64,000 nt of DNA from Escherichia coli (GTDB lineage: Bacteria; Pseudomonadota; Gammaproteobacteria; Enterobacterales; Enterobacteriaceae). Positions 8,078 through 11,000 of this stretch are shown in pieces. Location: NCBI RefSeq assembly GCF_003334385.1, contig NZ_QOWN01000005.1; one strand, given 5' to 3'. Position numbers: made by a program. Position 1 is the stretch's first letter; every line of letters begins with the position of its first letter.

Positions 8078-11000
8078 TAAGGACACGATAATGACGATTT
8101 TTGATAATTATGAAGTGTGGTTTGTCATTGGCAGCCAGCATCTGTATGGCCCGGAAACCCTGCGTCAGGTCACCCAACATGCCGAGCACGTCGTTAATGC
8201 GCTGAATACGGAAGCGAAACTGCCCTGCAAACTGGTGTTGAAACCGCTGGGCACCACGCCGGATGAAATCACCGCTATTTGCCGCGACGCGAATTACGAC
8301 GATCGTTGCGCTGGTCTGGTGGTGTGGCTGCACACCTTCTCCCCGGCCAAAATGTGGATCAACGGCCTGACCATGCTCAACAAACCGTTGCTGCAATTCC
8401 ACACCCAGTTCAACGCGGCGCTGCCGTGGGACAGTATCGATATGGACTTTATGAACCTGAACCAGACTGCACATGGCGGTCGCGAGTTCGGCTTCATTGG
8501 CGCGCGTATGCGTCAGCAACATGCCGTGGTTACCGGTCACTGGCAGGATAAACAAGCCCATGAGCGTATCGGCTCCTGGATGCGTCAGGCGGTCTCTAAA
8601 CAGGATACCCGTCATCTGAAAGTCTGCCGATTTGGCGATAACATGCGTGAAGTGGCGGTCACCGATGGCGATAAAGTTGCCGCACAGATCAAGTTCGGTT
8701 TCTCCGTCAATACCTGGGCGGTTGGCGATCTGGTGCAGGTGGTGAACTCCATCAGCGACGGCGATGTTAACGCGCTGGTCGATGAGTACGAAAGCTGCTA
8801 CACCATGACGCCTGCCACACAAATCCACGGCAAAAAACGACAGAACGTGCTGGAAGCGGCGCGTATTGAGCTGGGGATGAAGCGTTTCCTGGAACAAGGT
8901 GGCTTCCACGCGTTCACCACCACCTTTGAAGATTTGCACGGTCTGAAACAGCTTCCTGGTCTGGCCGTACAGCGTCTGATGCAGCAGGGTTACGGCTTTG
9001 CGGGCGAAGGCGACTGGAAAACTGCCGCCCTGCTTCGCATCATGAAGGTGATGTCAACCGGTCTGCAGGGCGGCACCTCCTTTATGGAGGACTACACCTA
9101 TCACTTCGAGAAAGGTAATGACCTGGTGCTCGGCTCCCATATGCTGGAAGTCTGCCCGTCGATCGCCGCAGAAGAGAAACCGATCCTCGACGTTCAGCAT
9201 CTCGGTATTGGTGGTAAGGACGATCCTGCCCGCCTGATCTTCAATACCCAAACCGGCCCAGCGATTGTCGCCAGCTTGATTGATCTCGGCGATCGTTACC
9301 GTCTACTGGTTAACTGCATCGACACGGTGAAAACACCGCACTCCCTGCCGAAACTGCCGGTGGCGAATGCGCTGTGGAAAGCGCAACCGGATCTGCCAAC
9401 TGCTTCCGAAGCGTGGATCCTCGCTGGTGGCGCGCACCATACCGTCTTCAGCCATGCACTGAACCTCAACGATATGCGCCAATTCGCCGAGATGCACGAC
9501 ATTGAAATCACGGTGATTGATAACGACACACGCCTGCCAGCGTTTAAAGACGCGCTGCGCTGGAACGAAGTGTATTACGGGTTTCGTCGCTAAGTAGCCG
9601 CATCCGGTATGTAACACCTGATGCGACGCTGACGCGTCTTATCTGGCCTACACGCTGCGATTTTGTAGGCCGGATAAGCAAAGCGCATCCGGCATTCAAC
9701 GCCTGATGCGACGCTGGCGCGTCTTATCAGGCCTACGCGCTGCGATTTTGTAGGCCGGATAAGCAAAGCGCATCCGGCATTCAACGCCTGATGCGACGCT
9801 GGCGCGTCTTATCAGGCCTACGCGCTGCGATTTTGTAGGCCGGATAAGCAAAGCGCATCCGGCATTCAACGCCTGATGCGACGCTGGCGCGTCTTATCAG
9901 GCCTACGCGCTGCGATTTTGTAGGCCGGATAAGCAAAGCGCATCCGGCATTCAACGCCTGATGCGACGCTGGCGCGTCTTATCAGGCCTACACGCTGCGA
10001 TTTTGTAGGCCGGATAAGCAAAGCGCATCCGGCACGAAGGAGTCAACATGTTAGAAGATCTCAAACGCCAGGTATTAGAAGCCAACCTGGCGCTGCCAAA
10101 ACACAACCTGGTCACGCTCACATGGGGCAACGTCAGCGCCGTTGATCGCGAGCGCGGCGTCTTTGTGATCAAACCTTCCGGCGTCGATTACAGCGTCATG
10201 ACCGCTGACGATATGGTCGTGGTTAGCATCGAAACCGGTGAAGTGGTTGAAGGTACGAAAAAGCCCTCCTCCGACACGCCAACTCACCGGCTGCTCTATC
10301 AGGCATTCCCCTCCATTGGCGGCATTGTGCATACGCACTCGCGCCACGCCACCATCTGGGCGCAGGCGGGTCAGTCGATTCCAGCAACCGGCACCACCCA
10401 CGCCGACTATTTCTACGGCACCATTCCCTGCACCCGCAAAATGACCGACGCAGAAATCAACGGCGAATATGAGTGGGAAACCGGTAACGTCATCGTAGAA
10501 ACCTTTGAAAAACAGGGTATCGATGCAGCGCAAATGCCCGGCGTTCTGGTCCATTCCCACGGCCCGTTTGCATGGGGCAAAAATGCCGAAGATGCGGTGC
10601 ATAACGCCATCGTGCTGGAAGAGGTCGCTTATATGGGGATATTCTGCCGTCAGTTAGCGCCGCAGTTACCGGATATGCAGCAAACGCTGCTGGATAAACA
10701 CTATCTGCGTAAGCATGGCGCGAAGGCATATTACGGGCAGTAATGACTGTATAAAACCACAGCCAATCAAACGAAACCAGGCTATACTCAAGCCTGGTTT
10801 TTTGATGGATTTTCAGCGTGGCGCAGGCAGGTTTTATCTTAACCCGACACTGGCGGGACACCCCGCAAGGGACAGAAGTCTCCTTCTGGCTGGCGACGGA
10901 CAACGGGCCGTTGCAGGTTACGCTTGCACCGCAAGAGTCCGTGGCGTTTATTCCCGCCGATCAGGTTCCCCGCGCTCAGCATATTTTGCAGGGTGAACAA

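Follow-up and report, generated by a model that had tools for sequence, protein, structure and literature searches.

The hairpin between araD and polB of Escherichia coli is very probably the araBAD terminator, with the polB −10 box between its arms

The spacer between araD and polB in Escherichia coli contains a LexA operator followed by a hairpin with a run of T residues, and we consider this hairpin very probably to be the terminator of the araBAD operon, wrapped around the −10 box of the polB promoter, rather than an attenuator in a polB leader. The two overlapping elements of the spacer, i.e., the polB promoter and the araBAD terminator, are already known from previous descriptions. In the proposed arrangement, the polB −10 box would lie between the arms of the terminator, and the U-tract of the terminator would also serve as the beginning of the polB mRNA. 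Transcripts that start at PBAD include both arms, so that they could fold the hairpin and terminate weakly at the T-tract, while transcripts from the polB promoter would begin inside the 3′ arm and be unable to form it. Because the former carry both arms and the latter do not, the hairpin is best described as a putative insulator of polB against arabinose-driven read-through, and not as a polB attenuator.

The window (the whole stretch of DNA that was analysed, 64,000 nucleotides of contig NZ_QOWN01000005.1, assembly GCF_003334385.1) is 100% identical to E. coli K-12 MG1655 over positions 10400-11200, where araD and then polB are annotated. Judged by this identity, the junction is the well-known K-12 araD/polB locus, and both motifs belong to known elements. 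The features of the junction are collected in Table 1. The gap from the araD stop to the polB GTG is 74 bp, in agreement with the MG1655 coordinates of polB (63429-65780) and araD (65855-66550); since these coordinates fix the offset, bases from 10048 onward are converted as window position = 76598 minus MG1655 coordinate. Of 5426 complete E. coli genomes, 5398 contain the 96-nt junction, and approximately 45% of genomes match the window across it with 99% identity or more. The fifth base of the −10 hexamer (window 10787) is polymorphic in the species: K-12-type strains have TATACT, and the other variant strains that were sampled have TATAAT. The changes seen in the three variant strains that were examined affect the loop, spacer or 5′ UTR and leave both stem arms untouched.

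Table 1. Features of the araD-polB junction, in window coordinates.
Feature	Position	Strand	Remarks
araD stop codon TAA	10741-10743	+	Read in the sequence
LexA operator 20-mer GACTGTATAAAACCACAGCC	10745-10764	.	Overlaps the −35 region; contains the core palindrome
LexA core palindrome CTGT-N8-ACAG, CTGTATAAAACCACAG	10747-10762	.	Read in the sequence; AT-rich centre
Putative weak −35 hexamer CAGCCA	10760-10765	+	Assigned from the position of the −10 and the start; 17-bp spacer
Hairpin 5′ arm AACCAGGCT	10775-10783	+	Also polB promoter spacer, including −13C and −14G
polB −10 hexamer TATACT	10783-10788	+	Last base of the 5′ arm plus hairpin loop; TATAAT in most relatives and many E. coli
Hairpin loop ATACTCA	10784-10790	+	7 nt
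Hairpin 3′ arm AGCCTGGTT	10791-10799	+	Pairs with the 5′ arm
polB transcription start	10795 (MG1655 65803, reverse strand)	+	SMRT-Cappable-seq, PMC6131387 Supplementary Data 2
T6 run	10798-10803	+	U-tract of the araBAD intrinsic terminator; also 5′ end of the polB 5′ UTR
Putative weak Shine-Dalgarno-like TGGA	10806-10809	+	8 nt 5′ of the GTG; from sequence only
polB GTG start codon	10818-10820	+	GTG conserved in relatives

A sequence-only reading of the same stretch had placed a LexA box directly after the araD stop and the polB GTG at 10818, and both are found there (box 10747-10762, stop 10741-10743). Its description of the hairpin holds in part. The 7-bp stem that it reported is a real core (CCAGGCT/AGCCTGG, 10777-10783 and 10791-10797), while the full stem is 9-11 bp; likewise, the T6 tract is present, but it occupies 10798-10803 (10804 is a G), and the core begins 14 nt after the box rather than 13. 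Between the T tract and the start codon, relatives have a purine-rich stretch at the same place as TGGA.

The polB start is given by the SMRT-Cappable-seq data of Yan et al. 2018 (PMC6131387, Supplementary Data 2), in which there is one operon with b0060 (polB), monocistronic, with its start at 65803 and marked “same” as RegulonDB. This start lies 7 nt 3′ of the −10 hexamer and within the 3′ arm of the hairpin. A single high-throughput data set, obtained under non-SOS conditions, supplies this position, which would make a T the first base of the transcript; initiation may in fact occur 1-2 nt further on, at G10796 or G10797. The coordinate convention holds, because the araBAD start in the same table (70077, 29 nt 5′ of the araB ATG) corresponds to window A6351, exactly 7 nt after the araBAD −10 TACTGT. 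The polB mRNA starts UGGUUUUUUGAUGG... and carries only five bases of the stem (UGGUU), and RNA from 10795 onward has no terminator-like fold. The polB (dinA) promoter would then consist of a weak −35 under the LexA operator, the −10 at 10783-10788, a start at approximately 10795, and a 5′ UTR of 23 nt.

The −10 hexamer TATACT matches the consensus at five of six positions, and all 80 aligned sequences (79 related loci and the window) share T-A-T-A-(A/C)-T, mostly as a perfect TATAAT. Because this hexamer and its spacing are conserved, the promoter is placed in the hairpin loop independently of the start-site data. The candidate −35 agrees with TTGACA at only three of six positions, and the promoter scanner, in keeping with so weak a −35, made no call at the polB promoter in the window. 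Both −13C and −14G are conserved in the alignment. Full expression of polB is reported to need RpoS (Dapa 2017, as cited in PMC6590174), and the K-12 sequence CTATACT, with its −13C, would fit a sigma-S-friendly −10.

Relative to the start at 10795, the LexA box covers −48 to −33, and because of this start it is an operator over the −35 region rather than a leader element; LexA would repress polB by occluding the −35 side of the promoter. The 20-mer GACTGTATAAAACCACAGCC is the box reported for polB (Lewis 1994; Fernandez de Henestrosa 2000), whose heterology index is high, at about 12-13. The gene is counted among the classical SOS genes, its box is weak (HI 13), and in RNA-seq it is induced 4.7-fold by AZT, with a 3.1-fold dependence on lexA3 and LexA cleavage (PMC11228462). 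The box upstream of polB is genuine. The bare pattern CTGT-N8-ACAG is not rare by chance, since the window contains three matches versus 0.58 expected, and three were reached in 1 of 100 shuffles. The other two exact matches (972-987 and 42264-42279) have G+C-rich centres (CTGTTGCTGTGCACAG and CTGTGACTTCCGACAG), and are probably due to chance, given the 0.58 expected per window. The elements of the junction are not due to chance, because the box, the 20-nt spacer, the −10 and the hairpin recur together upstream of polB in approximately 80 species of Enterobacteriaceae. Each of the 79 related loci that cover this region has the box, and its distance to the −10 is 20 nt except in L035, L047 and L081.

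One E. coli locus (L082, strain Z1323HEC0462, NZ_CP148331.1) carries an IS200C element (2537-3250) between the LexA box and the polB hairpin and −10. The insertion point corresponds to window 10771/10772, which puts the operator and −35 region approximately 0.7 kb from the core promoter. This strain is in effect a natural mutant, in which polB should be uncoupled from LexA.

The hairpin stem has nine Watson-Crick pairs, or 11 pairs if A10774-T10800 and G10773.T10801 are included. It is G+C-rich, lies 32 nt past the araD stop, and is the only hairpin with a T-tract after araD. The calculated stability is −10.8 to −14.3 kcal/mol, followed by T6, and the fold of the 87-nt region has z = −3.0 versus shuffles. 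Two of the T6 bases are able to pair with the A-tract, and the d'Aubenton-Carafa-type score is marginal, being +14, −2 or −14 according to the stem definition used. For the same hairpin, the terminator scanner run on the window called the − strand (10-bp stem, tail CGTTTGATTG) and not the + strand, the latter because the maximal stem uses up the T run. A covariation test found 87.9% of cells paired, equal to shuffles, as both arms are conserved at the sequence level. Three stem pairs are changed on both sides, in one sequence each, and the hairpin stays intact only in L079 (A-U to G-C).

The araBAD terminator is a described element of low strength (bioRxiv 10.1101/2020.03.05.979765, citing Lee 1986 and Chen 2013), and the earlier proposal that the hairpin ends araBAD transcripts is supported to this extent: position and build fit, and it is not refuted. 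The Term-seq supplement of Adams 2021, with ara uninduced, has no 3′ end at the araD/polB junction, and only a polB-internal 3′ end at 63552; the TRS supplements, also with the ara operon uninduced, have no entry for araD or polB and no 3′ end at the junction. A literature search for read-through into polB under arabinose, or for a link of polB to the AraC regulon, returned only mentions in strain construction. The hairpin appears positioned and built to terminate araBAD transcripts, and termination is plausible and consistent with the literature.

In the SMRT-Cappable-seq table, the transcript from the araBAD start (70077) covers araB-araA only and is labelled “ShorterEnd” (PMC6131387, Supplementary Data 2), which suggests that full-length araBAD reads end in or before a REP array upstream of araD under non-inducing conditions. 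This array lies in the araA-araD gap (window 9599-10034) and is an 85-bp tandem REP/BIME repeat of 5.1 copies with 97% matches, in which there are four Rfam naRNA4 (RF02564) matches just above the gathering score. At the same place MG1655 has 3.1 copies and a gap of 284 bp, versus 454 bp in the window, so that the window is not MG1655 here, although 10400-11200 is still identical. In an Rfam search of 9400-11400, REP/naRNA4 were the only families found, and there was no family at the araD-polB junction.

For the comparison across the family, 80 polB loci from different species of Enterobacteriaceae were anchored on the −10 hexamer. One of these (L005) was truncated upstream of polB and was dropped, which left a gapless alignment of 80 sequences (79 loci and the window). 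REP-like inserts, which vary in length, are confined to the stretch from the araD stop to the LexA box and never interrupt the module of box, −10 and hairpin. As the DNA upstream of the box consists of araD coding sequence or of these variable REP inserts alone, no conserved promoter candidate is present there.

The fate of the stem depends on what lies upstream. The genes araD and polB are at most 212 bp apart in 54 species, of which 53 retain the stem (at least 7 of 8 core pairs). Another 21 species, among them Salmonella, the Citrobacter freundii group, C. sedlakii, Pseudocitrobacter and Phytobacter, have 0.3-1.3 kb of other DNA between araD and the module, and nine of these retain the stem (ten if the register-shifted hairpin of L081, Siccibacter, is counted). 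The difference between 53/54 and 9/21 has a Fisher p of 1e-7, uncorrected for phylogeny. In the araD-adjacent class, the tail is T-rich, and the substitutions in the stem mainly produce G.U wobbles when read as + strand RNA; one change, in L079, is compensatory. Where other DNA intervenes, conservation stays at 90% or more in the LexA box, the 5′ arm and the −10, and drops to 40-80% in the 3′ arm. All eight loci in which the immediate upstream ORF points away from polB have at least one stem defect. The correlation is imperfect, since the stem is also lost despite a co-directional inserted gene in L027, L035/44/47 and L039/43/46. This pattern fits a division in which the 5′ arm region would belong to the polB promoter, and the 3′ arm and hairpin would be maintained where co-directional araBAD transcription arrives.

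The inserts between araD and the LexA box that lie 0.7-1.3 kb upstream of polB are found in L006-L014, L018-L023, L035-L047, L066, L078 and L081. Some of the small ORFs that they carry are on the opposite strand and have no NCBIfam match; others are co-directional, approximately 210 aa long, and have weak ElyC/SanA (DUF218-like) similarity. Lineages with inserted ORFs have a LexA box nearer the consensus (CTGTACAAAATAACAGTA). The promoter spacer AAACCAGG(C) (10774-10782) is at least 90% conserved across genera, including those of the L006-L047 loci that have no 3′ arm or hairpin; spacers of promoters are not normally so constrained in sequence. There are Dcm sites in both arms (CCAGG and CCTGG).

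The sequence-only reading had put both the box and the hairpin in a polB leader, and had proposed that the hairpin might attenuate SOS-induced polB transcription as well as terminate araBAD; such a dual role would resemble that of frd/ampC. The presence of a hairpin and T-tract between a LexA box and a start codon invites this view, and there is a precedent in E. coli itself, as the frd terminator/ampC attenuator was reportedly described by Grundstrom and Jaurin in 1982. Nevertheless, we regard attenuation of polB as extremely unlikely. The start at 10795 falls inside the 3′ arm, so that the polB mRNA cannot form the hairpin, and mapping the start relative to the hairpin, which had been suggested as a check, in effect goes against the attenuation half of the proposal; the conserved −10 sits in the hairpin loop, and no conserved promoter occurs upstream of the LexA box from which a longer leader could arise. 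Loss of the 3′ arm in some species leaves the remainder of the module in place, and the Term-seq data contain no 3′ end in the polB 5′ UTR. Nor is there a leader upstream of the hairpin to hold an antiterminator, leader peptide or ligand-binding domain, and the Rfam matches over 9400-11400 are confined to REP/naRNA4. The box is an operator at −48 to −33, not a leader element.

Another view would take the inverted repeat CCAGGC-N9-GCCTGG as an element of the polB promoter that acts as DNA, with the likeness to a terminator being incidental; it might be a site for a dimeric regulator flanking the −10, a cruciform, or a Dcm-methylated motif. Both arms are indeed Dcm sites (CCWGG), both are conserved in sequence without significant covariation, and the 5′ arm is conserved even where the hairpin is lost. 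A regulator site of polB would not be expected to lose its 3′ half according to the adjacency of araD, however, and the T-rich tail goes with the stem. The substitutions favour G.U, which is compatible with RNA pairing on the + strand only, and a measured araBAD terminator has been reported (bioRxiv 10.1101/2020.03.05.979765). Altogether this makes a DNA-level role very unlikely to be the explanation. We know of no candidate protein for such a site. The − strand call of the consensus scanner, with its 10-bp stem and tail CGTTTGATTG, raises the different idea that the hairpin is bidirectional and also stops − strand antisense transcripts coming out of polB, which would be compatible with the araBAD terminator. 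This addition is highly improbable: the tail region on that strand (10763-10773) is poorly conserved, with 30-50% column identity, the G.T wobble variants become A.C mismatches, and there is no gene or known start in that orientation. With its tail not conserved, a − strand terminator seems unlikely.

Each part of the preferred reading, an araBAD terminator around the polB −10, has a known counterpart. The E. coli polB (dinA) promoter with its SOS box is the same locus, identical in sequence to K-12, and there is no difference to report; the araBAD intrinsic terminator (Lee et al. 1986; measured by Chen et al. 2013, as cited in bioRxiv 10.1101/2020.03.05.979765), which is probably this hairpin, is weak in the literature, and is weak by score here. 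Two other systems are alike in layout. In the frd terminator/ampC attenuator, the nearest analogue of the attenuator reading, an upstream operon's terminator likewise sits within the control region of the gene that follows. There, however, the ampC promoter precedes the hairpin, which thus becomes part of the transcript and attenuates ampC, whereas the polB −10 is in the loop and the start in the 3′ arm, and polB escapes the terminator. The phiX174 T_H terminator, which overlaps the pA promoter, is similarly a combined terminator and promoter in which the termination and initiation signals overlap, but it belongs to a phage context and has no operator.

One extension of the terminator reading would make the overlap a device for regulatory integration. 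The weak terminator would let some arabinose-driven transcription into polB, while bound LexA (2-21 nt past the araD stop) and RNA polymerase poised at the embedded promoter would obstruct elongation as roadblocks and so make termination more efficient; SOS would then both open the promoter and allow more araBAD read-through, and the conserved 5′ arm AAACCAGG might have an extra promoter or regulator function. We consider this unlikely, and offer it as a speculation.

What is mildly new here is the comparative pattern of decay, together with the hypothesis that LexA or promoter-bound RNA polymerase modulates araBAD read-through. As a practical matter, a LexA box and a hairpin before a gene should not be taken for an attenuator until the −10 and the transcription start have been located. 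For strain engineering, deletions of araBAD that extend up to polB, or cassettes placed after araD, touch the polB operator and promoter, and arabinose induction may leak into polB via the weak terminator. Across the family, the decay of the 3′ arm in species without an adjacent araD is a small, clean illustration of a terminator that is kept only where upstream transcription arrives.
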